Shown here: positions 3,201 through 62,775 of the stretch, piece by piece
Position numbering within the stretch: position 1 is the stretch's first letter
How the letters are laid out: each line of letters begins with the position of its first letter
From: a virus
Lineage: Duplodnaviria > Caudoviricetes
Reading direction: 5' to 3' (one strand)
DNA: 62,775 bases
IMG/VR virus record: IMGVR_UViG_3300046782_000740
Coordinates: 1-62,775 of that record
The notes under the pieces: model-generated
The model's input: only the letters and a program-made list of their open reading frames with translations
Databases searched by the model: none
What the model was told of the DNA's origin: nothing
Position numbers and translations under genes: made by a program

Positions 3201-4007
3201 GTAGCGCGGGTTGGTCTTCAGGAAGGTGACAAAGTCGTTCGCCGATTCCCCGTAGCCGCCGTACGCCCTGAAGGTGTCGTTGATGTTGACCTTCTGGCCG
3301 TTGATGACCTCCCACGTGCCGACCTGGCCCGTGTTGGCGCCCGTGTTGGGGTTGGATCCCTTGATGCCGAAGTAGTTGTTGCCCGCCTGAGCGGTGCCCC
3401 AACCCGTCTCGTTACCGGGGATAGCGAGCAGCACCTGATACGGAATACCGGTCTGCTGCGAGATGCTCAGTGCCGTTGGAGCGTTCTGCTCGACAAACGA
3501 CACCATGCTCGACGAAGGCGCCGAGCGGGCTGCAGACGAGGGCCCTTGAGGAGGAGGCGCTTTCGCACCAGTTGCTACCCTCGCCTGCGTGCTCGAACGA
3601 TCTGGCGCTGGTGCGGTAGGGAGCACACCCCCACCGGTAGCGGCCTGATCAGTAGAAGGAGCCTCGATGGACGTCTTCGGCTCTTCTGGAACTGTAGCAG
3701 CAGCAGGGGGCTCCGTCAAGTTTTCGGTTGGTGCACTAGCCTGCGTGCTGCTGAGGTTCAAGTCAAGCGGTACAGCCGGGGCCGTGAGTGTAGGCACAGT
3801 TGGGGTGTGCTGGATTGGCTCGTAATTCCCCGTGCTGGGGTTGAGGAACATGTCGCCGTCGTCCGCACCTGCCCCCACCTCGGGGGGCACGGCCCAGGCT
3901 TTGACCAGATGCACCTTGCCGTCGGGCTTGGGCGCCCAGCCAGCCCGGGTACGTAGCGACGATCCCCGCTCTACAGGGTCAGACGCGAGCCAGTTCGGTA
4001 CGGGCAC
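1..4007 (-). CDS. N-terminal part of a giant (~2651 aa) virion/ejection protein with a GH73 glucosaminidase and two NlpC/P60 domains; continues across the junction into 62775..58619
   Basis: Absent from the ORF track because it runs off the edge. By hand, GTG at 4007 reads open for 1271 codons to MPDDVFF at 194. GH73 motifs: NETGWG...NNYFGIKG...FRAY...GYATDPKWADKI. NlpC/P60 motifs: YVWGG...DCSGFV...GDLV...HVGIY and PY...YDCSSFV...GDLIF...HVGFY. Confidence 0.9.
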   Translation of the reverse strand, partial: MPVPNWLASDPVERGSSLRTRAGWAPKPDGKVHLVKAWAVPPEVGAGADDGDMFLNPSTGNYEPIQHTPTVPTLTAPAVPLDLNLSSTQASAPTENLTEPPAAATVPEEPKTSIEAPSTDQAATGGGVLPTAPAPDRSSTQARVATGAKAPPPQGPSSAARSAPSSSMVSFVEQNAPTALSISQQTGIPYQVLLAIPGNETGWGTAQAGNNYFGIKGSNPNTGANTGQVGTWEVINGQKVNINDTFRAYGGYGESANDFVTFLKTNPRYQPALDYLQKQPNDWRGFVRMVADAGYATDPKWADKIISIGDGIDGTGSAAQGTTRFNPTESGRTGVPSVIDVGSTAIGSKYVWGGSGGRSNFDPNFSGSDCSGFVAWAYQQATGVKLPAYTGSIWDATQSISSDEASPGDLVMYNMNQGDPHEQHVGIYAGNGMMLHDSSINPNGGVDITPLWKGAQFRRVPGVDTSLASYANTNSPSKPQGQTGDSMVEWHIIAHAGHQILQGMLASGAMVTEDMGSTDEKNGVLLGSSTGMGLGETPGGGNDRMGSGQDEINPDPDLTQHLGGAPTPAPSPSLSDLVQPDLGKPYKMAAGRENDMSSDPGDHPAYDCSSFVSSVAARQGYKLSPFTDRMFDETAPVNSGEEQAGDLIFYRYNDPEQRGVTYPHVGFYLGDGRTYEARYDKATGGAVGEYDQLNPSTFKPVFRRMAKPEIGAGQDKPSGSPLEQALRTMIEEAVAKHMGAGQDDAAETFFNPSTGNFEKLQQTPFDASTPPSTALGADDPTKSAAPPVPVAAASALFAKPAEALAGGVGDMASKFNASAQAGTLGSDLASGAGETLGGAFSGLGSLGRGIADKAGDVVQGAQQLPQTVADTAGTIGDTAQALNTATPGAAVAQGVSDLASQIPEKAPEALSALNDAGQALTDLPATAAGAAVQVGTGAFQAGQQLGQAFSDYAKTPEAQQAAETAQHLERAIDPTTAIPEMLPGAEASVSYLRSMGYDLDALKASASKPADPGSVSARVADTGIQSPGDVLGVGGEVLQYLNDQRVEAVKQAQAPEIRDTVEGQALQQVLAMATDPTMYIGVGEAAVGRKAIEEASTVATKPGVVEALGRAGKAVAEFAADESGELRYGTSEAAKAAEEGSAEAARAAPRGNAEAARNLAAEETRLMSPDSPVAVALDRTYHVDEEIDLLQSAAIDLNDANLEAQSRRLMDGVDKHEPQTGEQLRRTIINAIATANPAMTPEEIIAAGDRVLYNADHPLLTHDAQILAGRAMPDDVFFARQPWWASDSAKAAADAAQAKTSAASTMDMAKRVASIPAEKAGVLHDAIASAAEAAA

Positions 4008-7000
4008 TCAGCCAGCAATCCCCGATGTGCCTTGAGAATACTGCTGTTTGACCTGGGGCGCCTGGGCCTGCGACCACTGACGGTTCTGCTGATCCCAGAA
4101 GTTCTGCGGCGTCTGGCCGAAGATGTCAGCGGTCATCTCCGCGCCCGCACGACCGACTGCTCCACCGGCTGCCGACTGCATGCGCGTGACGTTGGGGTCT
4201 AGCCCCTGCTGCAGGAAGTTGCCTGCCAGGTCGTTCGACTGCTGCGCCCACACGCCAGGCCCGAGCGCTTCCTGATCGGTACGGTAGGCAGCCTTCTGGA
4301 ACGGATCCCAACTCTGCCACTGCTGCGCCGTGATCGGCTGGCCTGTGCCGCCCGCTGGCGTGGTCGAGCCCTGCTGTGGAAGCTGCCCACCAGGCTGCGC
4401 AGCACCGGTGCTGCCCGCAGCGACGCTGCCCTGCGCGCCTCCACCAGGGTTGTAGCCAGCCGAGCCGAAGCCTGTGTAGTTGGGCGTGTTCTCGACGCCG
4501 TACTTGGTCGGGTCGTACGGCTGCAGGATCGAGTTGATCAGGTTCGACAGGTTCTGACCGCCGACGGCCTGACCCTGATAGCCGGGACCAGGGGTCATGC
4601 CCTGCAGCTTCTGCAGCCACGGGTTCTGCAGCGCGCTGCCCAGGATGTCCATCTTGTTCTTCTGCGTGGTCTGCCAGTCGGTGAACGCCTGCGAGCCCTC
4701 CTGCAGGTAGACCTTGTTGCCCTCGGACATCTCGGTCATCTTGATCTGGGTCGCGTCGCGCATCTGCTCGATGTCTTTGGTGGACTGGATCTGCTCGCGC
4801 TGAATCTTCTCGGACTCCTGATTGTGGCGCTCGTTCTCGGCGTTGATCTCCTGCTGGCGCTTGTCCTGATCCTGATGGATAGCCCAGTCCTGATCAATCT
4901 TCTTGAGCGTCTCGTTGTGCCGGTTGTCCTCGTTGGTCTTGTTCTGTTCTTCGATGGCCTTGTCGTTGCGGATCTTCTCGTCGATCTGCCTGTTCAGGGC
5001 GTCGATCTGGGCCTGCTGGCTGGGGGTCATGGCGACCGCACCAGCACCGGCGCCCATACCCCACTCGCCGCCCGCACCCATATCCGAGGCGTCTCGGGAG
5101 ATGGCCCTGTCGTCCCAGAGGTTCTGGTTGCCCGTGCCCATCTGCTGCTGATCTGTCGGCTGCTGCTGTTGCTGTGGCTGCTGACCCAGCGGCTGTTGCT
5201 GCGGCGGCGGCTGTTGACCTACCGGTTGCTGCTGCTGCCGCTTCACCGACTGCACGCTTGCGGTGATCGGCGACTGCTGGTTGCCGTTGCCCCAGAAGCT
5301 CTGCTTGTCCTTCTGCTCGTACAGATCCCAGCGCGAGTCAGCGTTGTCCTGCCCGCCGCCCATCGGGGGCTGCTGGGGAGGTGGTGCGCCAGGCTGCGGG
5401 GGCATCGGCGGGGAGCCGCCAGACGGAGAACTGGATCCGCCGGGCGGGCCCATCATCTGAGTCCCTGGCACAGGTGGGAGCGAGGCCATGGACCCAAGCG
5501 CGCCCGTCGGGTCGACAGGCTGACCTTGCGGGTCGCGCACCGCCCAGTGTAAGTGAGAGCCGGTGGTGTTGCCCGTCGAACCGACCTGGGTCGCCAGGTT
5601 CTGACCTTTGGCTACCTGCGCGCCGCGATACAACTCGGTGCTCTTGAGGTGCCCCAGCTTGTGCAGCGTGCCGTCGTTGCCGCGAATCATGACCACGAGG
5701 CCGAGCCCCTCTGGGTCGTCCTCGATGCTCTCGACCATGCCGTCGACGGGGGCGATGGTGTCGGTGCCCTCGGGCGCCTGCAGATCGACCCCACTGTGCA
5801 CGGGCTCGCCCTGGTTCATCTCCTGGCCGAAGCGATGCCCGATGCCCGCCACGTCCCCTGGCGGTACCGGTGGCGTCCAGCCAGGGGAGCCAGGGCCAGG
5901 TGTACCTCCTGGCCCTGGCATGGCACCAGCGTTCGGCGGAGAGCCAGGCGCAGGAGCCCCTGGAGAGGGTACCCCACCCGCCGTGGGTGGAGGGGCCCCA
6001 CCAGCGGGCGGAGCCCCGCCCATCTGACCGCGCAGCATTTCGATGTCAGGCGGGACGCCTGGCGGCAAGCCGCCTGGCGCACCGCCCCCAGCAGCAGGCG
6101 GCGGGGGGGAATCCGCGCCTGCACCAAAGAAGCTCAGGCCAGGCATCCCAGGCAGCTTGGGTTGAGGCACGGGCGGCGCGTGCCCCCCGCCCTGCGGCAG
6201 CGGCGTCACGGGCGGCGCGTGGCCCTGGCCCTGGCCCAGGCTCTGCTGCTTCTTCTGGAACTCGTCCCACCAACTGGGGTTTCCCGTAGGTGGCGTGACC
6301 TCGGGCGTGTGCCCGAGCGGCGGACCCTGCTCCACAGGGGTTGAGTTATTGCGCTCAGGTTCCCTGTGGACATCATCCGGCTCCGCGCGGATCCACTCTC
6401 TGGGATCCGTCGGCGGCAAGTCCCACGGGAGTTGCGGGTACTTCTGCGATTCTCCCTTGGGCGGATCAAAGGGAGTCTCAGGCTCGGTCCCGCCGTACCC
6501 CTGAGTGACGTCTCGCCAGTCACCTATATCCGGCTTCTGCGTAAAGGGGTCTGGCGGGAGCGGGGCTTCAGGCGGCGGCTTCTCCTGCTCACTCCACGCC
6601 GCTTCGTCCTCTGCACGGCTTGCCTCTTCGTCCTCATCCGCACCAGACGTGGGATTCCACGCCTCGCCTCGCATCGGCTCGTCTTTCGGCTGGTCGTGCT
6701 GGTCCTGCTGGTGCGGGTTTTCGAGCCCGCGCATCGCCTCGTCGTAGCGTCGCTGGACCTCGTCCTTGTGGGCCTGCTCGTCGCCAGGCTGCGCTGGGGG
6801 CTCGCTGCTGCCCCACGACTTCGGGTCGAGCGGATGGAAGTCGATACCGGCGCCCATCTTCGGGGTCCAGCCCTCGTGGCCCGCGCCGATGTCGATGGCC
6901 GTGCCGAGCCCGAGCGGGTCGCCGAGCTTCTCGAAGTCGGAGCCGAGCATGTTGGGCGAGTTGCTCTGCTCGGCGTCGGGCTGCTGCGAGGGCTGCAGAT

Positions 7001-20502: not shown

Positions 20503-20532
20503 TTGACAACCATTTCCGGCCCGTGGTAGGAT
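20503..20532 (+). promoter_or_regulatory. Sigma70/SigA-type promoter
   Basis: TTGACA-N18-TAGGAT, preceded by the palindrome CTGGAATTAGTTCCAG. Confidence 0.75.
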
Positions 20533-20567
20533 GATTCCTATCTACGGAAAAGGAGTGGTTGTCAGTT

Positions 20568-21446
20568 ATGGCACTACGCAGAAACAAAAGCACGGGTGGC
20601 TGGGAGCGTCAGCAGCCCGATGGCACATGGTTAGAGGTGGCGGGTCCGAGCGCCGCGCCGCCCGTCGGGGTCGCCGCTCCCGTAGCGGACTCGCTCGACG
20701 CGGCGCTGGACGAGGCATTCGACGCCGCGCTGGACGAGGCATTCGAGGCGTCCCAAAAACCCACCGAGCCCGTATCGGCGAATGGCTCCCAGGATTCGGC
20801 AGAGCCTGCGCCTGCTGCTTCGGTCAGTGAGCCGTCCCCCACGCTTGAGGCTGCCGTCGTCGAGGGCCAATTCACCGAGGTGCCCAGCGACGGAGCACAG
20901 GTTGTTGAGGGTGCTGCGGACGCGGGGCTCGACTTCGACATCCCTGGGCTGACGTCCTCAGACGGATCCAAAGGCACCAGGGGCGCCGCCGGTGTGCGCG
21001 ACCGCCTGATGGCCCGTCGGGGCACGGGAGGCCGCTCCACAGTTAGTGGTGCTCGCTCGGGTACGGGCGAGGGCACGGTGGTGGTAGCCGAGCGCGCCGC
21101 TCGGGCAAGCGGCCCCGCCGTCCGCGACGGCACCGAGGCCAGAGGACGCAGGGGGCGTTCTGGCGCACCCAGTCGGCCATCCACAGTTGGGTCGGGGACC
21201 GCTTCTGGTGGAGCGGCCAAGGCTGCCAGGTACACCGCGAAACCTGCGCCGGGTATCCTGAGTTCGTCTCCGAAGTGGGTACAGGATCTGTTCGAGGCGC
21301 ACTTCCGTTCGGACATGACGCTTCGGCTTCGACGGGAAAACAACCGGATGAAGATCAGTCGGCAGGACTATGCAATCGGGTGGCTGACGCTGCTGGCCAA
21401 GGTGAAGGAGGATCCGAGCATCCTGCGACTGAAGGACAAGGGGTAG
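20568..21446 (+). CDS. Hypothetical protein (292 aa): disordered acidic then basic region plus a conserved C-terminal helical domain
   Basis: AAGGAG RBS downstream of the promoter; SRQDYAIGWLTLL motif. Confidence 0.75.
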   Translation: MALRRNKSTGGWERQQPDGTWLEVAGPSAAPPVGVAAPVADSLDAALDEAFDAALDEAFEASQKPTEPVSANGSQDSAEPAPAASVSEPSPTLEAAVVEGQFTEVPSDGAQVVEGAADAGLDFDIPGLTSSDGSKGTRGAAGVRDRLMARRGTGGRSTVSGARSGTGEGTVVVAERAARASGPAVRDGTEARGRRGRSGAPSRPSTVGSGTASGGAAKAARYTAKPAPGILSSSPKWVQDLFEAHFRSDMTLRLRRENNRMKISRQDYAIGWLTLLAKVKEDPSILRLKDKG

Positions 21447-21573
21447 GGAGAGGGGGCTGACTTTACCTAGCCGGTAAAAGGGAAAAATTTTTTGGGGGCT
21501 CGCACCGTCCCCGAATAGCGCCCCAAGTGGTGCGTAGCACCACGGGGGGGCGCCTCCCCCCCTGCTTGCAGGG

Positions 21574-22598
21574 GGGGAGCTTCGCTGCGCGCGCGGCGGC
21601 GGCGGCGCTGGGCGGGGGTGCCCCCCGCTTAGCGCGTGCCTGCCGCTAGCTGCAGCGTACCCGCGCCGCGTGGCGCAGCGCATGGGGTGCAGGGCGTGCG
21701 CAGCACGCCCTCCAACACCCATGCCCGCTGCCCATGCGGCAGCGCCTGGCCGCGCGCTGGCGTGGCGGAAGCGGGGCATACGCCCGCTCACCGCCGCGCA
21801 GTGCGCGCTGCGCAAGAGCGCACCTCCAGGCCAGGGCTACGGCGCAGCCGTCGCCCACTGGCCAGGAGGCGAGCACGGTCGCTGCCCATCGGGCAGCGCA
21901 GGCCAGGCCGTGCGCCTTCGGCGCACGACCCGAGCCTGGCGCGGCGGACGCCGCTCCTGCCCCAGCGACAGCCAGCGGCACGCTGCGCTGCAGCGCTGCC
22001 GTCGGTCGGCGCGCCGCCGTGCGCGGCGTCTGCGTCGAGCGTGCTCGGCTCGCGCGCCCCGCGCCCATCGCCTCGTTGCTGGCAAGCGGCGCTTGCCTGC
22101 GTGCGGCAACGCCCCGAAGACTGGCCTGGGCGGCGAGCCGCCCGGGCCAGGCGAACAGCAGGGGAGATAGCCGAGCGCTGCTCGGCCCATCTTCTGCGCT
22201 CACGGGCACAGCGGCGGAGCGACTTCGTCGTTCCGCTTGGGCACGTGCTCGTGCGGCCCACATGCCGCGACCTCTGGCGTCGGACGTCTGCCCTGGCCGC
22301 GCGCTATCGTCGCGTCCGCGCGGGCTCGCGGCCCCTCGCCAGATCCACACGCGCGTCCCTCGCACAGTGGGACGCGGGCTTGCCCAGCGTCGCACCTCCC
22401 GCCTTTCGTTGGTTGCGCGGGTTCGGCGTAGCCGACCACGCGCGGTCGCGGCCGTCGCTGCCTCCGAGGTCTCAGGTTGTCGCCGGGGCGAACCTCTTGG
22501 GATGGCACCAGCAGACCACACGCTGGCATTTCAAATGTAACCCAGCGGTAAAGGGAGCAAGCTCCCCCGTCACCTGCCAAGGGGCGACACACAGTGAG
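21574..22598. repeat. Left (non-coding) arm of a giant imperfect inverted repeat, complementary to 22627-23829
   Basis: Its reverse complement aligns colinearly by hand with the promoter, RBS and four genes to the right, with many short deletions. Confidence 0.92.
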
Positions 22599-22648
22599 TC
22601 GGCAAGCCGACCGCCCGCAAGGGGCTCTCACTGTGACTCGCCTTATCC

Positions 22649-22677
22649 TTGACAGGAGCCGGCCACTGTGTTACTAT
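22649..22677 (+). promoter_or_regulatory. Sigma70/SigA-type promoter inside the fold-back stem
   Basis: TTGACA-N17-TACTAT, then AAGGAGG RBS and ATG at 22729. Confidence 0.85.
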
Positions 22678-22728
22678 ATTTGATGCCAGCGGTGGAGCCG
22701 CTGAGCCACACCAAGGAGGTTGCCCCTC

Positions 22729-23133
22729 ATGGCAACAACCCTCGATACCCTCGTCGGGAGCAGCGACTCCCCCCGCGACCGCTCGGTCGTGGTCGACTAC
22801 AGCGCCGAACTCCGCAAGCACACCAACGAGAAGAGCGGCGAGGTCAGCTACGCGCTGGTCATCTCCCCCGTCTTCTCCACTGGTGCGAAGGGCCGCAACG
22901 CGCTGTGGATCTGGCTCGATGGGCCCGCTTCGCTCCGCGCCTTCCGCGACTCGATGCAGCGCACGGCCAAGGGCATCGACGCTCTCGACGCCAAGATGGT
23001 CGCGGCCAAGGAGTGGGCCGCCCGACCAGTCGCGCCCAAAGCGGAAGCGGGCAAGCCCGCCTCCTCCGCCGCTGCGCCCGTTGAGGCTCCGAAGACGGTC
23101 CTCGACAACGCGCTCTCCGATCTCCCCTTCTGA
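22729..23133 (+). CDS. Putative ssDNA-binding protein or SSB C-terminal mimic (134 aa)
   Basis: Strong RBS; beta-rich N-domain plus helix (PC4/PUR-like by eye), Ala/Pro linker, C-terminal SDLPF like the bacterial SSB tip. Confidence 0.65.
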   Translation: MATTLDTLVGSSDSPRDRSVVVDYSAELRKHTNEKSGEVSYALVISPVFSTGAKGRNALWIWLDGPASLRAFRDSMQRTAKGIDALDAKMVAAKEWAARPVAPKAEAGKPASSAAAPVEAPKTVLDNALSDLPF

Positions 23134-23189
23134 TGTTCGCCTGGCTGGGGCGCGCGCTTGCGCCCCAGGCCGTTCTTCGGAGCATTGCC

Positions 23190-23546
23190 ATGCACACGCA
23201 GGAAATCGCCACTATTCGCCAGCAACTCGCGGACATCCGCGCGTGGCTCGCTGAGACCGAGCACAAGCTCGACCGCATGACGCTCGCGCCCAAGGCGGCG
23301 CCGCTGTCGACCGACGAGATCATCGCTGCAGCGTCCAGCGCGACCGCTGTCTACAAGTCGCTGGAGCAGGAACTCGGCGTCGACCGCCGCACCATCCTGG
23401 CTCGGGTCGAGCGCCTGGTCAAGGCGCACAACCTGGCCGAGCGCTTCCCCGAGTGGGGCACCGACCTCAAGCTCGCCAAGTACCTGGCCGAGCGGGTCGA
23501 CGGCGACCGCCGCCGCATCACCGTGGCTCTGGAGGCGCTCTCATGA
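23190..23546 (+). CDS. Coiled-coil plus HTH-like protein (118 aa)
   Basis: GGAG RBS; YKSLEQELGVDRRTILARVERL resembles an HTH. Confidence 0.7.
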   Translation: MHTQEIATIRQQLADIRAWLAETEHKLDRMTLAPKAAPLSTDEIIAAASSATAVYKSLEQELGVDRRTILARVERLVKAHNLAERFPEWGTDLKLAKYLAERVDGDRRRITVALEALS

Positions 23547-23674
23547 GCGCCTCGCGCCACCCCGCGCACAGGGGTGAGCGGCGCGCGCTTCGCGCCATCG
23601 ACCAGCGCAAGCGCGACCAGGCCGCTGCCCGCAAGGCAGCGCGCGCCCTGGTCAGTTGGAGGGCGGCTCGATGA
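23543..23674 (+). CDS. Small Arg/Ala-rich protein (43 aa)
   Basis: GGAGG RBS; ATGA coupling on both sides. Confidence 0.65.
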   Translation: MSASRHPAHRGERRALRAIDQRKRDQAAARKAARALVSWRAAR

Positions 23675-23841
23675 GCCGCCTTCCCCTCCTGCGCTGCGGC
23701 TACTGCGGGCGCATGATCTCGCAACAGCGCGGCAAGCCCGCGCCCCACAAGTGGGTGCAGGCTCCGCGACCAGGCGCTCGCGCCTCTGGCCCGTGGTGCG
23801 TCGGCGGCGCGCGGCAGCTACCGCTCCCCGGGCTCGGCTAA
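23671..23841 (+). CDS. Small Zn-finger-like protein (56 aa)
   Basis: GGAGG RBS; ATGA coupling; CGYC...H...C. Confidence 0.65.
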   Translation: MSRLPLLRCGYCGRMISQQRGKPAPHKWVQAPRPGARASGPWCVGGARQLPLPGLG

Positions 23842-24109
23842 CGCCGGGCCTTCGCTGCCCTACCGGGCCGCTGTCGCGGCCCTCGCCTCGCACTAGCCCG
23901 CCCCCCTGCGGGGCGGGCACCGGCTGGCTGCGCCAGCCGGAAGCACCTGGCACGGCGCGCGCTCCGCGCGCTGGGCCAGGCGCGCCGCTCCCCCTGCGGG
24001 GGGCGGGCTAGCTTGTCCGAGGCCGACGGCTGGGCCCTGCGGCTTGCGGAGTCTTGCTGCCGGCTAAAACAAGAGGCCCGAGCGCGCACAGGGGCACCAC
24101 CCCCTGGGT

Positions 24110-24410
24110 ACATTAGCAAACGCCCTGATTGTTACGTCAACCGGTGTTCTGTCTACTAGACATAACTATCTGGGGTTTTGCTAATAACACGCCGGATGTT
24201 GCATATACAGGCCCGGATAGCCTATATGCTATTCCGGCGTAAATAACCGGTAACAATCCCGGTCTTTATGGTGTGGATAAGAACAGGCCCGTTTTCAGGG
24301 TACCGGGCCTAACATCCACATTTGCCACGCCGTAAGCTCCCCGGTAACGGCTCTCGGAGCCGAAAAAGGGCCATTCCTTATCCACACCATAAGAACCCAG
24401 GCTGTGATCT
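24110..24410. other. AT-richer non-coding region with nested inverted repeats and two DnaA boxes; candidate replication or priming origin
   Basis: TGTGGATAA at 24272-24280 and TTATCCACA at 24378-24386 lie within a 16-bp perfect inverted repeat. Confidence 0.6.
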
Positions 24411-33301: not shown

Positions 33302-33938
33302 GGAGCGGCCCAACTTGCCCATTGCTGACGAGCCCGGTCCGCAAAATTCGCGGCCAATTTCATGGGATCCGGTATGGACCGAACGCTTCGACGACCGCAT
33401 CGTGCGTACCGAGGCGCACTGGCTCTGGACGGGCTACGTCGACCACCGAGACGGCTACGGGCGCTTCAAGCCCAGCCACGCCGACACGGCGATGCTGGCC
33501 CACCGTCTGGCCTACGTCAGGTGGGTGGGCCCGATCTCCGACGAGACCCCGGTGATCGACCACGTGGGGCACCCGTTCTTCCTGCGCAACTGCGTCAGGC
33601 CAGACTGCCTCGAAGCCATCACGCACGCCGAGAACATCAGGCGCGGCGGCAGCCCCGCAGGCAAGAACGCCCGCCTGACGCACTGCCCCCGGTGCGGCAA
33701 CGAGTTCAACCCCGAGAACACCGTCTACCGGCCCAATGGGGAGCGCCGCTGTCGCATCTGCCTGCGCGAGGAGAAGCGGCGCTACAAGCTCAGGCGGAAG
33801 GCTGAGAAGACGGCGGCGGCAGTGCCGGTAGTGAGTGCAGCCGAGGCCGCGCCGAGCGCAGCGAGAGCACGATTACTTGCTCGGTCTCGCCGTTCGGATA
33901 GCGATGCGTCAGGCTCTGATACTCCCCAATCTGTTTGA
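33270..33938 (+). CDS. HNH endonuclease with a C-terminal zinc module (start uncertain)
   Basis: HWLWTG...GYGRF...AHRLAY...IDH...CVRPDCLEAITHAENIRRG...THCPRCG...CRIC. Confidence 0.85.
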   Translation: MMRASPIPVSRERPNLPIADEPGPQNSRPISWDPVWTERFDDRIVRTEAHWLWTGYVDHRDGYGRFKPSHADTAMLAHRLAYVRWVGPISDETPVIDHVGHPFFLRNCVRPDCLEAITHAENIRRGGSPAGKNARLTHCPRCGNEFNPENTVYRPNGERRCRICLREEKRRYKLRRKAEKTAAAVPVVSAAEAAPSAARARLLARSRRSDSDASGSDTPQSV

Positions 33939-35412
33939 GGGCCTCCAGGGCTATGCCTGGCTTGAACGGGTGGATCTGGGCCTTGAGGCGCTGCACGACG
34001 TCGCCGAAGCGCAGGTAGAACGCCTCACCGGTACGCCAGCCCAGCGCTGAGGTCTCGGCGGGCCCGTTGGGTAGCGGACGCTCGATCATCGGCTTGAGCA
34101 GGTTCAGCATGATCCTGGCGGCGTAGCCCGCGTCGCTGGCCTCCATCGGCGCGTGCGTCTCTTCCTCGACCATGCTCGACACGGCGTCAGTGAAGTCGGA
34201 GAAGTTGTGGCCGCGCTGCCCGGGCAGGAACTTGGGCGTCCAGTGCACCTGCAGGAAGCACTTGCGTATGAACGTTTGTTCTGTTAGCAGGTCGACGGCT
34301 GGCACCGCCACGCTCAGCAAGCGCGTGGTCCCGGTATTGCTTACGACCTCGATATCCAGGGTGTACTGCGCCTCGTCGGGCCCGATGATGTACCTGGCGG
34401 CGCGCAGCACCTTGAAGTTGGCGCCCGAGGCGACTCGGGCTGCCTGCCTGGCCTGCTCGATGGAGTCCCTGGCTCTATCGAAGGTCAGCTTGAGGTAGCC
34501 GTAGCCGTGGTTGGCCCGCGACTTGTCCCGGTACGTCGTCCCGCCAATCTCGCAGCAGGCGAAGATCCGCTCGATGGCCTCGAAGTCCTGCTCCTTACGG
34601 ATCAGTTCGCAGATCACGGCGTAGTCGATCTCGCTCTGGCTGGGCACGTTGTTCCAGTGCCGCGTGCCTGGCGCCTGATTCCCGGGGACCAGCAGGGTGT
34701 CCTTGATGCGCTGCTTCATGTTGAGCCCGCGCACCTTGCTGAACGTGTCGGTCTTCTCGTCGTCGCTTAGCTGCAGGATGCTGCGATCATTGGCGCGCGG
34801 CGGGATAGCCCCAGGCACCGGCGTCTCGGACAGGTACGCGTCGCCGACGGCCTTCAGGAACGCCTCACCGTTGGGCACGGTGGGCAGGTTCTCGAAGCCG
34901 CCTGACCTGATCTGGTACGCGCGGCCCGTGTCGGGGTGGATGCTGGGCGGCACCACCATGTAGCTCGGCCCAGCACCGGAGCGTCCGTCGCCGCGCACGT
35001 CGCCCGCGTGGGCGGCGCGGTTGGTCAGGTACCACACCCCGCTCTGGACCCGATTCGGGCAGCGGAACCAGATGTGTGCCTTGCCCGAGCCCGACTCGAC
35101 GATGCACGCGCCGCGCAGCAGCGGGTCGCGCGCGTGGTCCAGTACCCAGCGGGCAAACTCCATGTTGTCGACGTCGCCGCAGTAGATCCCGCCCGAGATC
35201 TCGCCGCAGATCAGGCCCCAGTTCTGGGTGCCCCGCTCGATCCATAGCTGGGCCTCTTCCCGAGTCACCCGACGCTTCTGGAACGGGCTCCACACGCCGT
35301 CCTGCAGGACGCTCAGGTAGGGCCGCTTGTCGCGCGTCTGGAGCGGGATGATGTTGGCGCCCAGCGCCAGGTACCGGAAGGCTATGTGCTCTTGCCCATC
35401 CGGCATAACCAC
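33790..35412 (-). CDS. Bifunctional primase-polymerase (Prim-Pol) domain protein
   Basis: IIPL...KRP...W..FQKR, NWGLICG, DVD, SGSGKAHIWF, DVRG...YMVVPPSIHPDTGRAY. Confidence 0.9.
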   Translation of the reverse strand: MVMPDGQEHIAFRYLALGANIIPLQTRDKRPYLSVLQDGVWSPFQKRRVTREEAQLWIERGTQNWGLICGEISGGIYCGDVDNMEFARWVLDHARDPLLRGACIVESGSGKAHIWFRCPNRVQSGVWYLTNRAAHAGDVRGDGRSGAGPSYMVVPPSIHPDTGRAYQIRSGGFENLPTVPNGEAFLKAVGDAYLSETPVPGAIPPRANDRSILQLSDDEKTDTFSKVRGLNMKQRIKDTLLVPGNQAPGTRHWNNVPSQSEIDYAVICELIRKEQDFEAIERIFACCEIGGTTYRDKSRANHGYGYLKLTFDRARDSIEQARQAARVASGANFKVLRAARYIIGPDEAQYTLDIEVVSNTGTTRLLSVAVPAVDLLTEQTFIRKCFLQVHWTPKFLPGQRGHNFSDFTDAVSSMVEEETHAPMEASDAGYAARIMLNLLKPMIERPLPNGPAETSALGWRTGEAFYLRFGDVVQRLKAQIHPFKPGIALEALKQIGEYQSLTHRYPNGETEQVIVLSLRSARPRLHSLPALPPPSSQPSA

Positions 35413-48091: not shown

Positions 48092-50065
48092 TCATCGCCG
48101 CTGCTCGGTGCAGTACATGGTGCCGTAGCTGATCGTGCTCACTCCTGCGTTCATGTTGAGAAAGACGGCAACGCGATGACTACCAGCCGGCATCGTGTAG
48201 TACACAACGCCCGACGCGGAGCAATAGTAGTTCGCGCCTGGGGTGTGGATGACGTGCGTTCCAACCCACAGTCCGCCGTCGATGCCGATGCCGAGATTGA
48301 TAATGGCCCCGGCTATGGAGTTGTAGAACGAGAGGCTCCACTCAATCCGCACGTTCAGTCCACCGGTGTACGTCCCGATGACCGCCACCGACGTCTCCAG
48401 CCAGCCGGCAGCGCCGGTTGACCAGCCGCCGCCAACGCCATTGAATGACCCTATGATCGCTTGCGCCGCGCCAGCCGCGAGCATCGGCGTGGTGACCGAG
48501 CCAGCAGGCAGAGATAGGGAGTTGGTGGCGGTTATCCCATAAGCCTGGAAGTTGCCCCAAGCAGTCAGGCCACTGGTCATCGTCACCGCACCGGTGTAGT
48601 CGATGATCACTGCGTCGGTGAGCGCGGCGTCGGTGACGACGCGCCGCGTGGCAATGTTCAGTGAACCCAAGCTGTTGGGTTGACCGTTCGCCAGGAAGCC
48701 TTTGATGCCTGCAAAGGCGATGTTGTTGCCAGCACCAAACAAAAGCACCCCGCCGTTGCCTGCGTTCTGGTTCGTGTCGTGCAGTGCGAGCAGCCCCCCG
48801 CCGACGGTCAGCCCCAGGCCGCTGGTGTTGTTGTAGCCAGCCCAGGTGGTGGCCCCCACGCCGTAAATCTCCGCCTGGGCATTCGTAGCAGAGCCGCCGC
48901 CGACCGTTAGCAGGGGCGTGACCATGCTGGTACCGGCGTATACCGTACGCGGCCTCTGGCTAGGCCAGCCGACATCCATCTGGTTGTCCTGCCCCGGTAC
49001 CCAGTGACCCGCGTTTCCCTCCACGCCCCACTTGGTCGCGGCGTTGACCTGAAGCCTGACCGCGCTACCCGACGTGATGAAGAACGTGTTGCTGCCAGCG
49101 TCCCAGATCATCGGGCGAGCCACACCAGTACCGTTGGCCTGGACTCCGATAGCTACCTGATTCGCCGCCCAGTTGATCCTGAAGCGCTCCCAGTTGTTGG
49201 CGTCGGAGTACGTGTTGTAGATGTACAGACTCTGTGCGTTCAGCCCGTTGCGCTGCTCCACCACGTTGCCAGCCGGAGCCAGCAGTGGGGTATCGACCAG
49301 TGGCGTGACCACGCTGGTGCCGGCGTAGATGGTGCGGGGTCTCGATGCTGCTGCGGCGCCGATGTCGTAGGTGTTGTCGGTGTTCCACATCAGCGTGTTG
49401 TTGAGCAGCGTCACGCCCGCGTTGTACAGACCGACGTTTCCGGCGCCTGACTGGTTGCTGATGTACACACCGTAGGCAATGCTGACCCCCGCAACGCCCT
49501 GGTTGTCCACGTATAACCCGTACATGCTCCCGACCCCGCTGCCGGATCCTAACGACGGTGCTCCCGCACGCAGCACATACCCACTGGTCAGGTTGGCCGC
49601 GACCGCTGTCGTATGCAGCCTGGCATAGACGCCGTAGAACGTGCCGAATGCAACAGCCGGAACCACAGGATCGACCTGAACCCCGTAAAAGAGGCTGCCG
49701 CTGAAGCTACTGCTGGGACTGCCGATGTACAGGGACGAAGAAGTCAGCCCCCCACTGCCAATACCCACGTTGCCAGTCAGGTTGCTGCCACCAGTCACGT
49801 ACAGCGTGTTGGTGACCCTTAGCTGTCGGCCCACATATACGTCGCGCGGCCTGCTCGCCGCCGTGGCGCCAATGTCGTAGGTGTTGTCAGGGCTGAACGT
49901 CAGGTTCTGCGTCAGCGGCAGCGTGAGCCCCCCGCCACCCCCCGACTGGTCTGCCCAGCCCATGGCGTAGTCGACGCTTGAGTTCTTGACCAGCACCTGA
50001 CCGGTCGTGCCGCCCATCGGAATGGGGTTCTTGAGGTCGAGGTTGGTGACAAGCTGGCGGGACAT
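48092..50065 (-). CDS. Tail fibre protein 2 (657 aa)
   Basis: GGTTGQVLVK; three D.TYDIG....RPR..Y repeats. Confidence 0.85.
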   Translation of the reverse strand: MSRQLVTNLDLKNPIPMGGTTGQVLVKNSSVDYAMGWADQSGGGGGLTLPLTQNLTFSPDNTYDIGATAASRPRDVYVGRQLRVTNTLYVTGGSNLTGNVGIGSGGLTSSSLYIGSPSSSFSGSLFYGVQVDPVVPAVAFGTFYGVYARLHTTAVAANLTSGYVLRAGAPSLGSGSGVGSMYGLYVDNQGVAGVSIAYGVYISNQSGAGNVGLYNAGVTLLNNTLMWNTDNTYDIGAAAASRPRTIYAGTSVVTPLVDTPLLAPAGNVVEQRNGLNAQSLYIYNTYSDANNWERFRINWAANQVAIGVQANGTGVARPMIWDAGSNTFFITSGSAVRLQVNAATKWGVEGNAGHWVPGQDNQMDVGWPSQRPRTVYAGTSMVTPLLTVGGGSATNAQAEIYGVGATTWAGYNNTSGLGLTVGGGLLALHDTNQNAGNGGVLLFGAGNNIAFAGIKGFLANGQPNSLGSLNIATRRVVTDAALTDAVIIDYTGAVTMTSGLTAWGNFQAYGITATNSLSLPAGSVTTPMLAAGAAQAIIGSFNGVGGGWSTGAAGWLETSVAVIGTYTGGLNVRIEWSLSFYNSIAGAIINLGIGIDGGLWVGTHVIHTPGANYYCSASGVVYYTMPAGSHRVAVFLNMNAGVSTISYGTMYCTEQRR

Positions 50066-50080
50066 CTGGGCTCCTGGGGT

Positions 50081-50488
50081 TTACCGTGGGTGGGCCGCTG
50101 TAGGCACGAAGAAGAGGTACTGGTAGATCTGGATACTGCCGGACACGAAGTACGACTGCGACCACGCCATGTACCACTGCGTGCTCGCGGCCATGTCCGC
50201 GTAATACGCATAGCCCCAGTTCATGTCGTTGCCGGAGTACGCCTTGAGTTGCTTGGTGGGCGCCATTTGGTTGCCGCCGTTGAGTCGAACAGCGATGTTG
50301 AAGCTCGGGTTGTCCTCATTGGTTGAGAGGTTGCCCGTCATGCTCACGTAGAACATCCAGCGCCCAACACGGTCGGTGTAGATCGGCACCGCATTCTGAC
50401 CACCGGAGCCAGTGCCGATGTTATAGCCACCCTGATTGGAGATCTGGATGGGCGGTTCAACCGGAAACTTGCTAGGCAGGTAGGTCAC
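50081..50488 (-). CDS. Tail-associated beta-sandwich protein (135 aa)
   Basis: GTGA coupling; C-terminus FVPTAAHPR resembles FIPTADYPN of fibre 3. Confidence 0.65.
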   Translation of the reverse strand: MTYLPSKFPVEPPIQISNQGGYNIGTGSGGQNAVPIYTDRVGRWMFYVSMTGNLSTNEDNPSFNIAVRLNGGNQMAPTKQLKAYSGNDMNWGYAYYADMAASTQWYMAWSQSYFVSGSIQIYQYLFFVPTAAHPR

Positions 50489-52113
50489 ATGATCATCCAG
50501 CCGACGTAGCCAGAACTTGCAAATACCGTGATCGACTCCCCCTGCTGAAGCGTATACGGGTTGACCCAGCCCGTGGAGTAGATGCCGTTGCCATTGGTGA
50601 CATACACGTTGAACGCCGCGCCGGTAACGTTCTTGACGTAGTACACTCTCCCATACACGTAGTTCAGGTCTGGCAGGTAGACATAGGTGCCGGTGTTGAT
50701 GACCGCGAGATCGGTGGTGACGCCGAGCGTGACGTTGCCGCCAGTCTCCACGCGGTAGAGCATGTCGGCACGCTGGTGCGACTGGAGCAGTTCGTTGGGA
50801 GCGTAGGAGCCCGCGTAGAAACGCGGCCCGATGGTGTCGCCGAACGTGATCCCGATGCCGTAGGTGGTGTTGTAGATCCCACAGGCGCCGTTCATTCGCA
50901 TCCAGCCCAGGTGCTGCACCCCGTCGGCCATCGTGCAGCTAGCCCCGATTGCCGCGTTGTTGAGCGGGCCGTTGCAGTTGATCGTGGCTGCCGCTAGCGG
51001 GCCAGGCGTCACCGTCAGGTTGTTGGCCGCAACGTAGGACGAGCCGTAGTCCGAGAGTACCCCGCCGCCTGGGAACTTGATTGAGCCCGTGACCGTGATC
51101 CCCGTGGAGTCAACCATCAGTCGCTGCGCATGCGAAGCCGGGTTGGCACCTGCCGCAACGGTGTTGAAAGTCATTATCCCAGCGCCGATGACGATCAGCG
51201 ACGAGGCAGCCGACGTGTCGTAGCGCATCCAGTTGGTGCCGTCGAAGTAGGCATTGCTGGTCAGGTTCACGCCGACCTTGCCGCCTTCGAGGATGGCCGA
51301 CGTGGGCGACTCGATGACCAGATAGTTGGCAGCGCCAGGCGCGATGTGCAGGATCGGCGCGTTTACCCCAGCGGGACCAATGGCGAGCGTACCCGGCACC
51401 GTAGCGTTGTGGCTCAGGTACAGGTCGCGCGGCCTGCTCGCTCCGCTCGCGCCGATGTCGTATGCGCCGTCAGGGCTGAACGTCAGGGGCTGGCCCAACG
51501 GCAGCGTGATCCCCCCAGACTGTGCCGCCCAGGCCACGTTGTAGTCCGCAGTCGCGCTCTTCTGCAGCACCTGACCGACGGTGCCGCCTGCTGGCACGGC
51601 GCCTGGGCCGACGAACGACGTGGCCGCATAGACCGTGCGCGGCCTGCTGGCGCCAGCGATGCCGACGTCGTAGGTGTTGTCTGGCGAGAACAGCAGGGAG
51701 GCAGCTAGCGTCGTTGCACCCAGGCTGGTCTGTCCCGTCACAGCCAACGTACCGGCAACCGTCGCGTTGCGGCCCAGGAACAGGTCACGCGGTCTACTTG
51801 CAGCGCTGGCACCAATGTCGTAGGTCGCATCGGGGCTGAACGTCAGGGGCTGACCCAGCGGCAACGTCACCCCCAGGTTGAGGGTGGTCCACCCAACGGC
51901 ATAGTTGGTAGCGCTGGTCTTGGCCAGCACCTGGCTGGTCGCGCCGCCGGTAGGTACCGAGCCAGGCCCGCTGATAGAGCCTGTGACCTGTAGCGTGTTG
52001 GCGATAGTGACAGGCTGATCGGCCATCACCCCGGTCAACAGGTCGGCGTACTGTTTGATGTCAGCGTGGGCGATGAGGCCCTTGTTGATCAGTCGGCTGG
52101 TGTCGAGGGGCAT
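50485..52113 (-). CDS. Tail fibre protein 1 (542 aa, start MPLDTSR)
   Basis: Three FSPD.TYD(I/V)G....SRPR repeats, two GG...QVL.K motifs, C-terminal LP...GR.Y.VKN domain. Confidence 0.85.
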   Translation of the reverse strand: MPLDTSRLINKGLIAHADIKQYADLLTGVMADQPVTIANTLQVTGSISGPGSVPTGGATSQVLAKTSATNYAVGWTTLNLGVTLPLGQPLTFSPDATYDIGASAASRPRDLFLGRNATVAGTLAVTGQTSLGATTLAASLLFSPDNTYDVGIAGASRPRTVYAATSFVGPGAVPAGGTVGQVLQKSATADYNVAWAAQSGGITLPLGQPLTFSPDGAYDIGASGASRPRDLYLSHNATVPGTLAIGPAGVNAPILHIAPGAANYLVIESPTSAILEGGKVGVNLTSNAYFDGTNWMRYDTSAASSLIVIGAGIMTFNTVAAGANPASHAQRLMVDSTGITVTGSIKFPGGGVLSDYGSSYVAANNLTVTPGPLAAATINCNGPLNNAAIGASCTMADGVQHLGWMRMNGACGIYNTTYGIGITFGDTIGPRFYAGSYAPNELLQSHQRADMLYRVETGGNVTLGVTTDLAVINTGTYVYLPDLNYVYGRVYYVKNVTGAAFNVYVTNGNGIYSTGWVNPYTLQQGESITVFASSGYVGWMIM

Positions 52114-61600: not shown

Positions 61601-62775
61601 GTCCAGATTGCCGAAGCCCTGGAAACCCTCCAGGCTGTTGAGCGGGATCATGCCCTCGGGTACCTGCCGCCCGCGCGCCCTGACCACGTCGGCGCCGCTC
61701 AGGATGTCGCTGCCCTTGCTGCCTGGGCTGACCAGATCCATCAGGTTGCCGAGGAGTTCCGGTCGGTTGACCGACGCCTCCTGTGCCAGCTTGTCGACGA
61801 ACGCCTGGTTCGAGGCCGACTGGATGGCGCGCGTGTAGTAGTTGCCCAGCACCGTGGGCAGATCGTCCACGTACTGCGCGCCGTTGGCCTGGCCCTCGAT
61901 CATCGTGCGGTAGTCGCGGCTCTTGTTGTAGGTGCTGAACGGGTTGCGGTTGAACCGCCCGCCGCCACCGGGTCGCTTGCCTTCTTCGGCCCCCCTGGTG
62001 GTCGCCGCCGCCCACTCCTTGTCGAGCACGTGGGGCACGTACATCTTGGCCTGGCCCGCGCCTTCGAGGCCCAGCGGATCCTTGACGATGTCGTATTTGC
62101 GCGCCCACTCAGAGACGGCCTGCCAGCGGTCGAAGGCTGCCTGTGCTCCAGGCAGATCCTTTACCCGGTTCGGCAGTCGACCCAGCATCTCCATCTCTGC
62201 CGCCAGGTCGGCGTTGGCCAGGTCGCCGAAGACGCTGCGCCACTGATCGGCCAGTTGTTCGCCGGCGTTCTGCGACATCGCGTGGTTCCCGACCAGCGCC
62301 GCGTACGCATCCCTGGCGGGCTTGCTGAGCTTCGTGGCGGGGGCCAGCAGTTCCTGCCCCGCCTCGATGGCAGCTTTGCCGACGGTCTTGCTGATGCCCG
62401 TGGCGATGTACGGCGCGCCTATCCCCAGCGCGAAGCCGAGCATGCCTTTGGTGACGGCCTTGCCGTAGTGGTTCGGGTCGTTCTCGTCGCCGTATGCCAG
62501 TTCCGAGCCGCCCGCCAGCGCTCCCGTGGCCAGCCCGCCAGCGGTGCGCTTGACGATACCCGGTGCTCCAGCCGCTGCCTCGGCAGCAGAGGCGATGGCG
62601 TCGTGCAGGACGCCAGCCTTCTCGGCAGGGATCGACGCCACGCGCTTGGCCATGTCCATCGTGGATGCGGCGCTGGTTTTCGCCTGCGCCGCGTCGGCGG
62701 CAGCCTTGGCCGAGTCGCTCGCCCACCACGGCTGACGGGCGAAGAAGACGTCGTCGGGCATAGCCCTGCCTGCCA
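58619..62775 (-). CDS. C-terminal 1380+ aa of the giant ejection protein that starts at 4007
   Basis: The frame is continuous across the terminal repeat; helical, with hydrophobic segments and a YVPH motif like large internal virion proteins. Confidence 0.9.
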   Translation of the reverse strand, partial: AGRAMPDDVFFARQPWWASDSAKAAADAAQAKTSAASTMDMAKRVASIPAEKAGVLHDAIASAAEAAAGAPGIVKRTAGGLATGALAGGSELAYGDENDPNHYGKAVTKGMLGFALGIGAPYIATGISKTVGKAAIEAGQELLAPATKLSKPARDAYAALVGNHAMSQNAGEQLADQWRSVFGDLANADLAAEMEMLGRLPNRVKDLPGAQAAFDRWQAVSEWARKYDIVKDPLGLEGAGQAKMYVPHVLDKEWAAATTRGAEEGKRPGGGGRFNRNPFSTYNKSRDYRTMIEGQANGAQYVDDLPTVLGNYYTRAIQSASNQAFVDKLAQEASVNRPELLGNLMDLVSPGSKGSDILSGADVVRARGRQVPEGMIPLNSLEGFQGFGNLDDVHISPELATVLKNYAGSGDSIWDSALLRQSRNINSIFKHNTLSGSAFHLLNEVRQTFATQGAEAPVNLGKIMWQTTFPGGFRQFMTTNGPLARQAEKDGLTLNVVADRMDNLNLPQRWGLAAMNAGIGSVAGYQTALNSGETNEDALKTALATGIISGAAGSPVIKLDALSPERRSLVEHLSHAMWDRWIPALKLTTYEMYAPEFGGRDAASFVNSVFGGQNLLAIARSRSVQNAASMAALAPDWQEGFARLAGNALFNWGKDAPQGDMARKYWSNALVQHAVVLEGMNLAFGGQFSWQNDPDATLQVNAGRFYDMMGWDHTDPKTGQSYTPYWDILGPFRSMIEPVQETARAATAGAYTASGYDLNKLPLHDEVAGKWGQIPPPDPAGSVGRFISSRAGWLASTAGEVRANYDFAGRPIDQADDNEVQRAINRVWMITNHMQPTGTGEGLKDVAKGDPWPVALFSAATGMRTKREDETTKFFQWQDQFVNENKKNTQDWANLRADSRAQSQAIDQKIEAIQSGAKKNDDGSDMTPRDRNNQIAALAAQRPTQKKDLQGLIDKRNLPDGPEKDELQRQLKEMLSYDIVSGGNDPVDLTGRTDIDPADLFNKAWNKDPSAVDRLTRTSPKPIDFGQGMGASFAESGLGDTLRDVIHNPPGSTSSKELQGLRAQWTEDYAKTWGIDPAVMQDYVKANLYDLPNKTPPPLTGVTSSQLDDIVQGWQDKGLSQNNQPITDPGTAARLRQEYVMATAQELGLDPKDLAQRIKLRNLPMADTTPAGLSRSRALDVLSDSRYYPYQNADGSPKDGPAEWQEYDKKLSAARNRFEFVQKDGKGFYMKDGKVDPELTGLFEDKQRATAYRYRSVFNSPNKDDYYRWFGDGANLTDKQWEQYQAGTLDMWHDNPDPREAKNRNTAMRVWAGLTPEERWTYGIPEAGGGKPITYSALGPTGKMESRSSSLAGYINYINTYKNNHYVLGDIDPNPQQAVSSAGG
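62568..62775. repeat. Terminal direct repeat (copy 2)
   Basis: Matches 1-208 with one mismatch. Confidence 0.97.

Follow-up and report, generated by a model that had tools for sequence, protein, structure and literature searches.

The DNA analysed here, referred to as the window, is an entire IMG/VR record (IMGVR_UViG_3300046782_000740; 62,775 nt, with an estimated completeness of 98%) from a soil phage, and the element of interest is a hairpin structure, built on an early promoter named P2, in which a non-coding left arm mirrors the promoter and the operon genes that follow it. Genes of the window code for a large terminase and a major head protein, as well as for a family-A DNA polymerase, two helicases, an exonuclease and a Prim-Pol; it is therefore the genome of a tailed double-stranded DNA (dsDNA) phage. 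Close cultured relatives were not found, the closest match of its DNA polymerase being 30.8% identical, and the region of the element gave zero DNA matches among 50,697 phage records. Genes run leftward at 4–20 kb and rightward at 20.5–46 kb, and the rightward block begins, in this order, with promoter P1, a gene of 295 amino acids (aa), a GC hairpin block, approximately 1 kb devoid of codon periodicity, P2 and the genes g1 to g4. The hairpin on P2 consists of two layers, an old core and a young extension that is specific to the lineage. The parts of the element, in window coordinates, are:

20503–20532, plus strand: promoter P1, sigma-70-like (TTGACA-18-TAGGAT), predicted to serve the first rightward gene and lying outside any inverted repeat
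20559–21446, plus strand: upstream early gene of 295 aa, without an assigned family, with 37–46% aa identity in relatives; it anchors the synteny of the element
21529–21577, no strand assigned: conserved GC hairpin block, GGTGC-GTA-GCACC followed by G7/C7/G7, at the outer base of the left arm
21632–22548, no strand assigned: left arm (917 nt, 76% G+C), which is non-coding, depleted in A/T and mirrors, in condensed form, the promoter leader and g1 to g4
22549–22589, no strand assigned: tip-proximal left arm; its minus strand holds the TTGGCA that pairs with the −35 box, and an additional hairpin complete in itself (GGGAGC..GCTCCC) forks off within the promoter spacer
22590–22635, no strand assigned: Y-shaped tip, a 9-bp stem (22590–22598 with 22627–22635) closing two GC mini-hairpins
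22649–22677, plus strand: predicted early promoter P2 (TTGACA-17-TACTAT, TG before the −10 box), located in the right arm at a distance of 14 nt from the stem of the tip
22663–23743, plus strand: right (coding) arm of 1081 nt, holding the −10 box, the leader, the ribosome-binding site (RBS), all of g1 to g3 and 73 nt from the start of g4
22729–23133, plus strand: g1, 134 aa
23190–23546, plus strand: g2, 118 aa
23543–23674, plus strand: g3, 43 aa, basic, its start and stop codons overlapping those of its neighbours
23671–23841, plus strand: g4, 56 aa, rich in cysteine; the secured mirror ends within it

Gapped local alignment of the reverse complement of 21500–22620 against 22620–23950 gave a score of 498 and paired 21632–22548 with 22663–23743 through 791 matches and 108 mismatches, as compared to a mean of 31.5 (standard deviation 3.0, maximum 41) for 100 dinucleotide shuffles, a score of 35 for the direct orientation and a maximum of 38 for 100 other 1.1-kb pieces of the window. 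A preliminary description of this DNA had claimed an inverted copy of the P2 operon and had proposed composition-matched shuffles as the check; the real score lies far above them, and the fold-back is confirmed. The same description had placed the two arms at 21574–22598 and 22627–23829. The aligned intervals given above are secured, and pairing runs onward from them through the −35 box, where TTGACA stands opposite TTGGCA, to the stem of the tip, but the outermost ends (21574–21604 and 23799–23829), albeit colinear, score just 25 when taken alone, against 23 ± 3 for shuffles, and the secured mirror therefore ends in g4, 98 nt ahead of its stop codon. The left arm was also correctly described as being about 180 nt shorter owing to short deletions, since its gaps amount to 182 nt in 108 events of 1–4 nt each, compared with 12 events and 18 nt in the right arm, and as having no surviving reading frame, since it lacks codon periodicity and none of its four long open reading frames (ORFs) matches Pfam. 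When the window was compared with its own reverse strand by blastn, two hits were obtained, representing the inverted repeat itself and a palindromic self-match at 21665–21740 (81 columns, E 5e-4) within the left arm, and no other large inverted repeat was detected in the genome by this comparison.

An assembly or sequencing artefact, such as a long-read fold-back chimera, was considered and rejected. All four of the other sequencing runs compared, which derive from four studies, contain a contig that crosses the tip with zero differing letters and zero gaps (X2, 21746–24100; X3, 21923–23951; X4, 22187–22912; X5, 21981–22658), and while none of these contigs alone covers the whole stretch, their identity establishes that the structure is real DNA.

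Syntenic relatives were found by way of a conserved downstream protein and g2, and a metagenome scan yielded the loci L011, L013 and L014, so that the distribution of the mirror rests on six lineages and one twin, L014 being the twin of L013. Searches for relatives with g1, g2 or a 410-aa ORF alone returned nothing, and alignments of g2 retrieved no further IMG/VR contigs. In L003 the mirror takes in the promoter of that locus, its g1 and half of its g2 (3820–4453 with 4515–5345); a narrower alignment of this locus, 3820–4409 with 4561–5345, has 538 of 585 columns identical and a score of 246 against 28 ± 2 for shuffles, with 88 deletion events in the left arm as compared to 5 in the right arm. 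The mirror of L013 and L014 covers g1 and 22 nt of g2 (1456–1878 with 1979–2532; score 102, shuffles 28 ± 3), while in L005 and L011 it spans only the interval between the −35 box and the RBS, some 70 nt, and stops just ahead of the start codon (the arm alignment of L011 scores 51). L004 has no mirror, and iteron-like direct repeats occur in the same gap. The mirror of a whole operon that had been put forward is thus a property of this phage only, in which it is secured into g4, and does not extend to the relatives. Nothing above shuffles was found beyond the secured ends of the mirror in the window, L003 or L013. The extension measures about 1.1 kb in the window, 0.8 kb in L003 and 0.55 kb in L013; the g1 proteins of these three lineages are only 26–31% identical, while every mirror matches its own partner, and the positions deleted are not shared between lineages beyond chance (P 0.24–0.42), indicating that the long mirrors are separate recent copies, or else have undergone full turnover.

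Two further features of the relatives lie at or beside this position. In the gap of L004 (3600–3720), a CTCCGGTAAC-like word is repeated both in tandem and in inverted orientation, with an iteron-like appearance. In L005 (3560–3830) and L011 (4880–5125), a conserved GC-rich stretch of approximately 250–270 nt, non-coding and full of hairpins, separates the G/C block from the short mirror, and no similarity of this DNA to the reverse complement of the operon was detectable; it may represent an earlier mirror that has decayed completely, or an element of its own.

The core of the hairpin, from the tip to the RBS, is 220–270 nt in length and is present in five of the six lineages. Pairs were counted on L005 and L011, the MAFFT alignment of all five cores being too poor on the left arm. 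These two loci have left-arm-specific indels in common, and their mirror is therefore older than their split. For the minus strand 74 pairs are predicted, with 11 changed on both sides, 3 changed on one side and none broken, and for the plus strand 58 pairs, 6 of them compensatory, with a consensus energy of −79.6 kcal/mol; pairing of the core has thus survived a sequence divergence of about 20%. The paired changes include the −35 hexamer, which reads TTGACG/TTGACG in one locus and TTGGCA/TTGGCA in the other, and two paired indels. The tip is a perfect stem of 9–10 bp with two mini-hairpins in the window, L003, L005 and L011, and the sequence of the stem differs among them. On this comparison the promoter-to-RBS core is judged to be old, with its two sides changing together. 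Template switching during replication is described, in the sections cited of PMC13100816, PMC8604942 and PMC8794818, as a process that homogenises and expands inverted repeats and makes compensatory-looking changes in a single step. As it can mimic compensation in this way, concerted change alone is no proof of selection.

Of the A and T residues of the right arm, 52–58% are kept in the mirror in the window and 46–47% in L003, as compared to 75–79% of C and 83–88% of G, and A/T positions have been removed or replaced 2–3 times as often as G/C positions. No such difference exists between codon positions: pooled over the three lineages, substitutions at G/C residues affect 29 of 495 third positions and 42 of 695 first and second positions (Fisher p = 1.0), and at A/T residues 16 of 63 and 81 of 348, respectively (p = 0.75). 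Because retention differs by base and not by codon phase, the fate of a residue in the mirror is set by base identity. The mirror differs at 27–34% of right-arm positions; the lack of a third-position excess means that the coding arm has gained almost no synonymous change since the mirror arose, and, given the extent of alteration, that this is not neutral pseudogene decay. The earlier opinion that random decay does not account for the left arm was upheld on these grounds, together with the small, A/T-targeted deletions.

Indel events outnumber or equal substitutions in the long mirrors, with ratios of 120:108 in the window and about 93:50 in L003, while the left arms of L013 and L014, which are 98%-identical twins, differ by 8 substitutions and 1 indel in 296 nt. 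Deletions are of 1–4 nt in the window and of up to 7 nt in L003, totalling approximately 250 events of 7 nt or less over three lineages, and no large internal deletion was seen in the arm alignments of the window, L003 and L013. In the window, the longest exact run is 12 nt as compared to 18.9 nt in simulations (P = 0.0085), every one of the nine 120-nt bins has a kept fraction of 0.71–0.75, and this fraction is under-dispersed among bins at five of five bin sizes (P from 0/3000 to 0.011); there is no gradient of identity along the arm. Taken together, these comparisons lead us to regard the kilobase extensions as young. An origin through a diversity-generating retroelement or another reverse transcriptase was tried and rejected: RVT_1 has no match in the genome, A and T are hit alike and mostly by deletions, and the left arm is identical in the four other sequencing runs.

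Folding was examined for both strands against shuffled controls, as the preliminary description had proposed, and the core (22478–22745), treated as single-stranded DNA (ssDNA), has a z-score of −10.6 for the minus strand and −7.7 for the plus strand. With DNA parameters the central 1499 nt form one long rod of −621.8 kcal/mol (minus) or −554.8 kcal/mol (plus); with RNA parameters 2.28 kb reach −1628.7 (minus) and −1537.4 kcal/mol (plus), with 749 and 640 pairs across the tip, respectively, as compared to about −560 kcal/mol for each arm folded alone. The minimum free energy of the core as RNA is lower for the minus, or template, strand in all five lineages. Mismatches that are compatible with wobble pairing on the minus strand outnumber those on the plus strand by 30 to 7 in the window, 14 to 8 in L003 and 17 to 3 in L013 (pooled, 61 versus 18), and next to the RBS three A-to-G differences that L005 and L011 both retain amount to wobbles on the minus strand and to C–A mismatches on the plus strand. 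P2 matches the consensus at 10 of 12 positions and is stronger than P1. In the predicted DNA fold of the minus strand its −35 box is fully paired, with one G–T pair, and its −10 box is half paired with a 3-nt bulge, a layout that is similar in L003; the bulge in the template strand results from the absence of the TAT of the −10 box from the mirror in the window and L003.

No protein family was found for any of g1 to g4 in Pfam or PHROG. The g1 protein comprises a beta-beta-beta-alpha core, a disordered linker rich in Pro, Ala and Lys and an acidic D-L-P-F tip; a C-terminal D-[LM]-P-[FAW] is present in six of six homologues, with a final F in four, A in one and W in one. We take this acidic tip to resemble the tails of bacterial single-stranded DNA-binding proteins (SSBs). 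A model of g1 from the single sequence was poor, with a predicted local distance difference test (pLDDT) score of 54, while a model based on an alignment was good for residues 20–100 (pLDDT about 90). Comparison of the modelled core with the Pur-alpha and PC4 ssDNA-binding folds gave weak matches (Z 5.6–4.4, under the noise guide of the tool), Foldseek at E ≤ 0.001 returned no match in PDB or BFVD, and there was no sequence match in PDB; judging from the model, g1 is possibly a new small ssDNA-binding protein or a mimic of an SSB tail. The best-conserved gene of the operon is g2, with 67 database relatives, all of them unnamed or hypothetical except for one with the unconfirmed source label 'beta-lactamase class D'.

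The reading that we favour, to which we assign a probability of roughly 0.3, is that of a hairpin that functions in the template strand when this is single-stranded, as the Frpo and ssi elements of plasmids do, and that has been extended by strand-switch copying. The element would act while the minus strand is single-stranded, for example as a lagging-strand template or as a strand displaced in phage replication; the minus strand would be the lagging-strand template for leftward forks through the operon, if such forks exist. The folded minus strand would present a duplex-like promoter, its −35 box paired and its −10 box pre-opened by the bulge, at which host RNA polymerase could start an RNA on ssDNA that runs down the right arm into g1, and this RNA could be the message for the SSB-tailed g1 protein, a primer, or both. 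The extension would have been born by strand-switch, or fold-back, copying outward from the core hairpin and would soon have become riddled with small interruptions, leaving no perfect duplex above 12–13 bp. The long extension may serve to lengthen a surrogate non-template strand, or may simply be tolerated. A bolder form of this proposal, advanced still more tentatively, is that a deliberately bulged surrogate non-template strand and the promoter hairpin together make up a self-contained unit for transcription or priming on ssDNA, renewed by strand switching, in which perfect duplex is held at or below about 12 bp.

Several results weigh against an action in single-stranded template DNA. This is a tailed dsDNA phage, and there is no evidence that the region is exposed as long-lived ssDNA; the setting of Frpo, DNA that enters the cell or exists in single-stranded form, is not that of a tailed-phage genome (no relaxase or oriT search was made). 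P2 is already near-consensus as duplex DNA and needs no help, and the −10 box of the mirror strand is degenerate, reading TACATT in the window and TACCAC in L003, with none clear in L005 and L011. The minus strand of the left arm has gained G in every class of change, including those that create no wobble (T-to-G 36 versus A-to-C 13), and the right arm alone also folds better as the minus strand (−593 versus −543); the strand asymmetry could therefore be partly compositional. The extended arm of L013 and L014 has changed at about the neutral, synonymous-site rate, with none of 29 substitutions compensated, so that the earlier suggestion of pairing maintained by compensatory change holds for the core of L005 and L011 (11 of 74 pairs compensatory, none broken) and finds no support in the extended arm. 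The regular spacing that had been ascribed to the deletions has statistical support in the window, but even spacing of the interruptions was not significant in L003 or L013. Furthermore, the extension ends mid-gene in L003 (mid-g2) as it does in L013 (22 nt into g2), the fold matches of g1 remain below the stated noise level of the tool even at their best (Z 5.6), and a candidate origin adjoining the operon, set out further below, is not conserved, perfect DnaA boxes being absent from all six related loci.

Alternatively, the long arm might be a mutational by-product, an account that we consider doubtful as a whole. The core would be a terminator or insulator, the arms of which are kept alike by template switching that sometimes copies the coding arm outward; the resulting kilobase mirror would have no function and, a long palindrome being harmful, would be broken by small deletions in the unconstrained arm and finally lost. 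Template switching is reported, in the parts of the sources cited above, to homogenise and expand arms. The mirror has a different length in each lineage and ends mid-gene, its three extensions are all young with unshared deletions, as in birth and death, the left arm of L013 and L014 changes at a neutral-like rate, and the GC-rich DNA of about 270 nt beside the core of L005 and L011 could be the remains of a decayed copy. This account is at odds with the manner of the erosion, as one large deletion would suffice to remove a harmful arm, yet the approximately 250 events are all small, with none larger within the arm, and the kept fraction in the nine bins of the window, equivalent to an even 73% complementarity, is more even than chance. 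Nor does it predict the A/T-specific trimming or the enrichment of G on one strand, and it has to accommodate the persistence of core pairing through 20% divergence with none of 74 pairs broken. An ordinary pseudogene, an old inverted duplication of promoter and operon of which the left copy decays neutrally, would agree with the non-coding, shorter left arm that is colinear with four genes, and deletion bias is usual in decaying prokaryotic DNA. It is highly improbable in view of the lack of a third-codon-position excess relative to the live copy, the ratio of indels to substitutions (about 1:1 to 2:1, as compared to 1:8 in the left arm of L013 and L014), the match of each of three lineages to its own partner despite g1 proteins that are just 26–31% identical, the absence of large deletions inside the arm and a core that evolves in concert.

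The hairpin might instead act in RNA. Silencing on the plus strand, dependent on the promoter used, appears unlikely, and would have transcripts from P1 or from read-through contain both arms and form a rod that hides the RBS of g1 or the whole message, or that marks it for cleavage, while those initiated at P2, which do not include the left arm, are translated. This agrees with the position of P2 within the right arm, 14 nt from the tip, and with P1 and the upstream gene being on the same strand, and by the anatomy of the predicted promoters the hairpin would be complete only in transcripts from the upstream one. Moreover, the mirror of L005 and L011 ends exactly at a pairing of anti-Shine–Dalgarno and Shine–Dalgarno sequences (GCTCCTT with AAGGAGC), the plus strand is still very stable, as judged from its consensus energy, its 6 compensatory pairs and its core z-score of −7.7, and the tip in L003, L005 and L011 resembles a two-way terminator, with GC mini-hairpins between an A-tract and a T-tract. 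Against these points stand the weaker folding of the plus strand in five of five lineages and the conserved mismatches beside the RBS, which are C–A on the plus strand and G–U on the minus strand. The longest perfect duplex is of 12–13 bp, which is short for RNase III; in addition, the conserved GC hairpin block before the left arm may already stop transcripts from P1. A rod-shaped minus-strand RNA, in which a leftward antisense transcript runs through the tip into the left arm and stores or masks a regulator of g1 to g4, would make use of the strand that is the better RNA folder in all five lineages and of its conserved G–U pairs, and one weak leftward promoter-like site (24155–24128, 9 of 12 positions) is present in the window. 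This option is nevertheless quite improbable, as none of three loci (L003, L005 and L013) has a leftward promoter-like site 3′ of the right arm, the tip in L003, L005 and L011 reads as a terminator ahead of the left arm, the transcript would run head-on through a strong promoter, and no Rfam family was matched, the one hit having 18 bits against a threshold of 40.

The closest known systems are the Frpo and ssi ssDNA promoters of plasmid leading regions (Masai and Arai 1997, cited in PMC11541004); as described in the portion of PMC11541004 relied on here, Frpo is an ssDNA hairpin of 50–350 bp with −35 and −10 boxes and their complements, often located directly upstream of ssb. The element shares with these that the hairpin of one strand would rebuild a duplex −35 box and a partly open −10 box, that the strand which folds is the template of the downstream genes (an asymmetry that may be compositional), that an A/T-rich stretch lies upstream of the −35 box in L003, L005 and L011, and that the first downstream gene, g1, has an SSB-type tail. 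Its core falls within the size range of Frpo, while the paired region of the window itself measures about 2.1 kb and reaches into four genes. Unlike Frpo and ssi, it resides in a tailed dsDNA phage and not in a transferred T-strand, its hairpin runs 0.55–1.1 kb into coding DNA in three lineages, and its promoter is near-consensus as a duplex too.

In the sib retroregulation of phage lambda only one of two transcripts holds the complete hairpin, and the present element is similar in that its two predicted promoters would give transcripts with and without the full hairpin, one class of which would be silenced. It differs from sib in that the hairpin would be on the 5′ side and would cover RBS and coding region alike, in its length of up to 1 kb, interrupted by a bulge roughly every 8 nt, and in having the mRNA-sense (plus) strand as the worse folder. 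At single-strand origins a promoter-like hairpin is recognised by RNA polymerase, which then synthesises a primer. The single-strand origins of rolling-circle plasmids, integrative and conjugative elements and filamentous phages resemble the element, as read here, in being long imperfect palindromes that are active in one strand only, according to the section cited of PMC4595007. They differ from it in being non-coding on both arms, 130–300 nt in length and located in replicons that pass through ssDNA. Quasipalindrome mutation by template switching offers a parallel for the paired changes and indels in both arms and for outward growth from a small core, and the cases given in the cited parts of PMC13100816, PMC8604942, PMC8794818 and PMC7202029 span tens of nt, as opposed to hundreds to a thousand here. 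Template switching leaves unexplained the A/T-specific trimming by more than 100 tiny deletions.

A condensed kilobase mirror of an operon in a phage was not found described in those parts of the literature that were searched, and we regard the element as a hairpin promoter, or a regulatory inverted repeat, whose scale and mode of evolution are without precedent. If the hairpin does act in ssDNA, an ssDNA promoter or priming hairpin would have been described for the first time in a tailed phage; some phages would then express or prime an early operon from replication intermediates, with the gene of an SSB-tailed protein first, and the Frpo principle would be carried from conjugative plasmids to phages at the kilobase scale. 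If the long arm is only a by-product, the loci would represent the natural and repeated birth of kilobase palindromes by strand switching, followed by very fast base-specific erosion, and would show directly how long inverted repeats are defused by genomes. In either case, long 'non-coding' gaps in uncultured phages can be condensed mirrors of neighbouring genes, which are missed by gene callers and by ungapped repeat finders.

The DNA flanking the hairpin has features of its own. The GC hairpin block at 21529–21577 is a candidate terminator, packaging site or protein site, any of which it may be; its motif, GCACCA followed by a G6–7/C6–7 hairpin, stands at the end of the upstream gene block whether or not a mirror is present and recurs in L003 (about 3690–3740), L004 (about 3560–3595), L005 (about 3550–3580) and L011 (about 4850–4880). 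It is not followed by a T-tract, and the G7-C7-G7 arrangement of the window allows two alternative pairings. On the other side, 3′ of g4, a second GC-rich self-complementary block occupies 23842–24105, its outer arms (23893–23913 and 23991–24011) being 86% complementary. Beyond it, at 24261–24397, lies an island of lower G+C with a 36-nt inverted repeat (83% complementary) that carries two DnaA boxes of consensus sequence, one on the minus strand (24272) and one on the plus strand (24378); this is the candidate origin adjoining the operon.

Elsewhere in the window, positions 1–208 and 62568–62775 form a direct repeat of 208 nt with 99.5% identity; the record is classed as linear without end repeats, and the repeat suggests a complete genome that would be circularly permuted or carry terminal repeats. 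The Prim-Pol gene (33790–35412) is on the minus strand amid the rightward replication block, and the leftward tail-spike and structural region contains diverged direct repeats at 49827–51874, of 105–187 nt and 72–79% identity.

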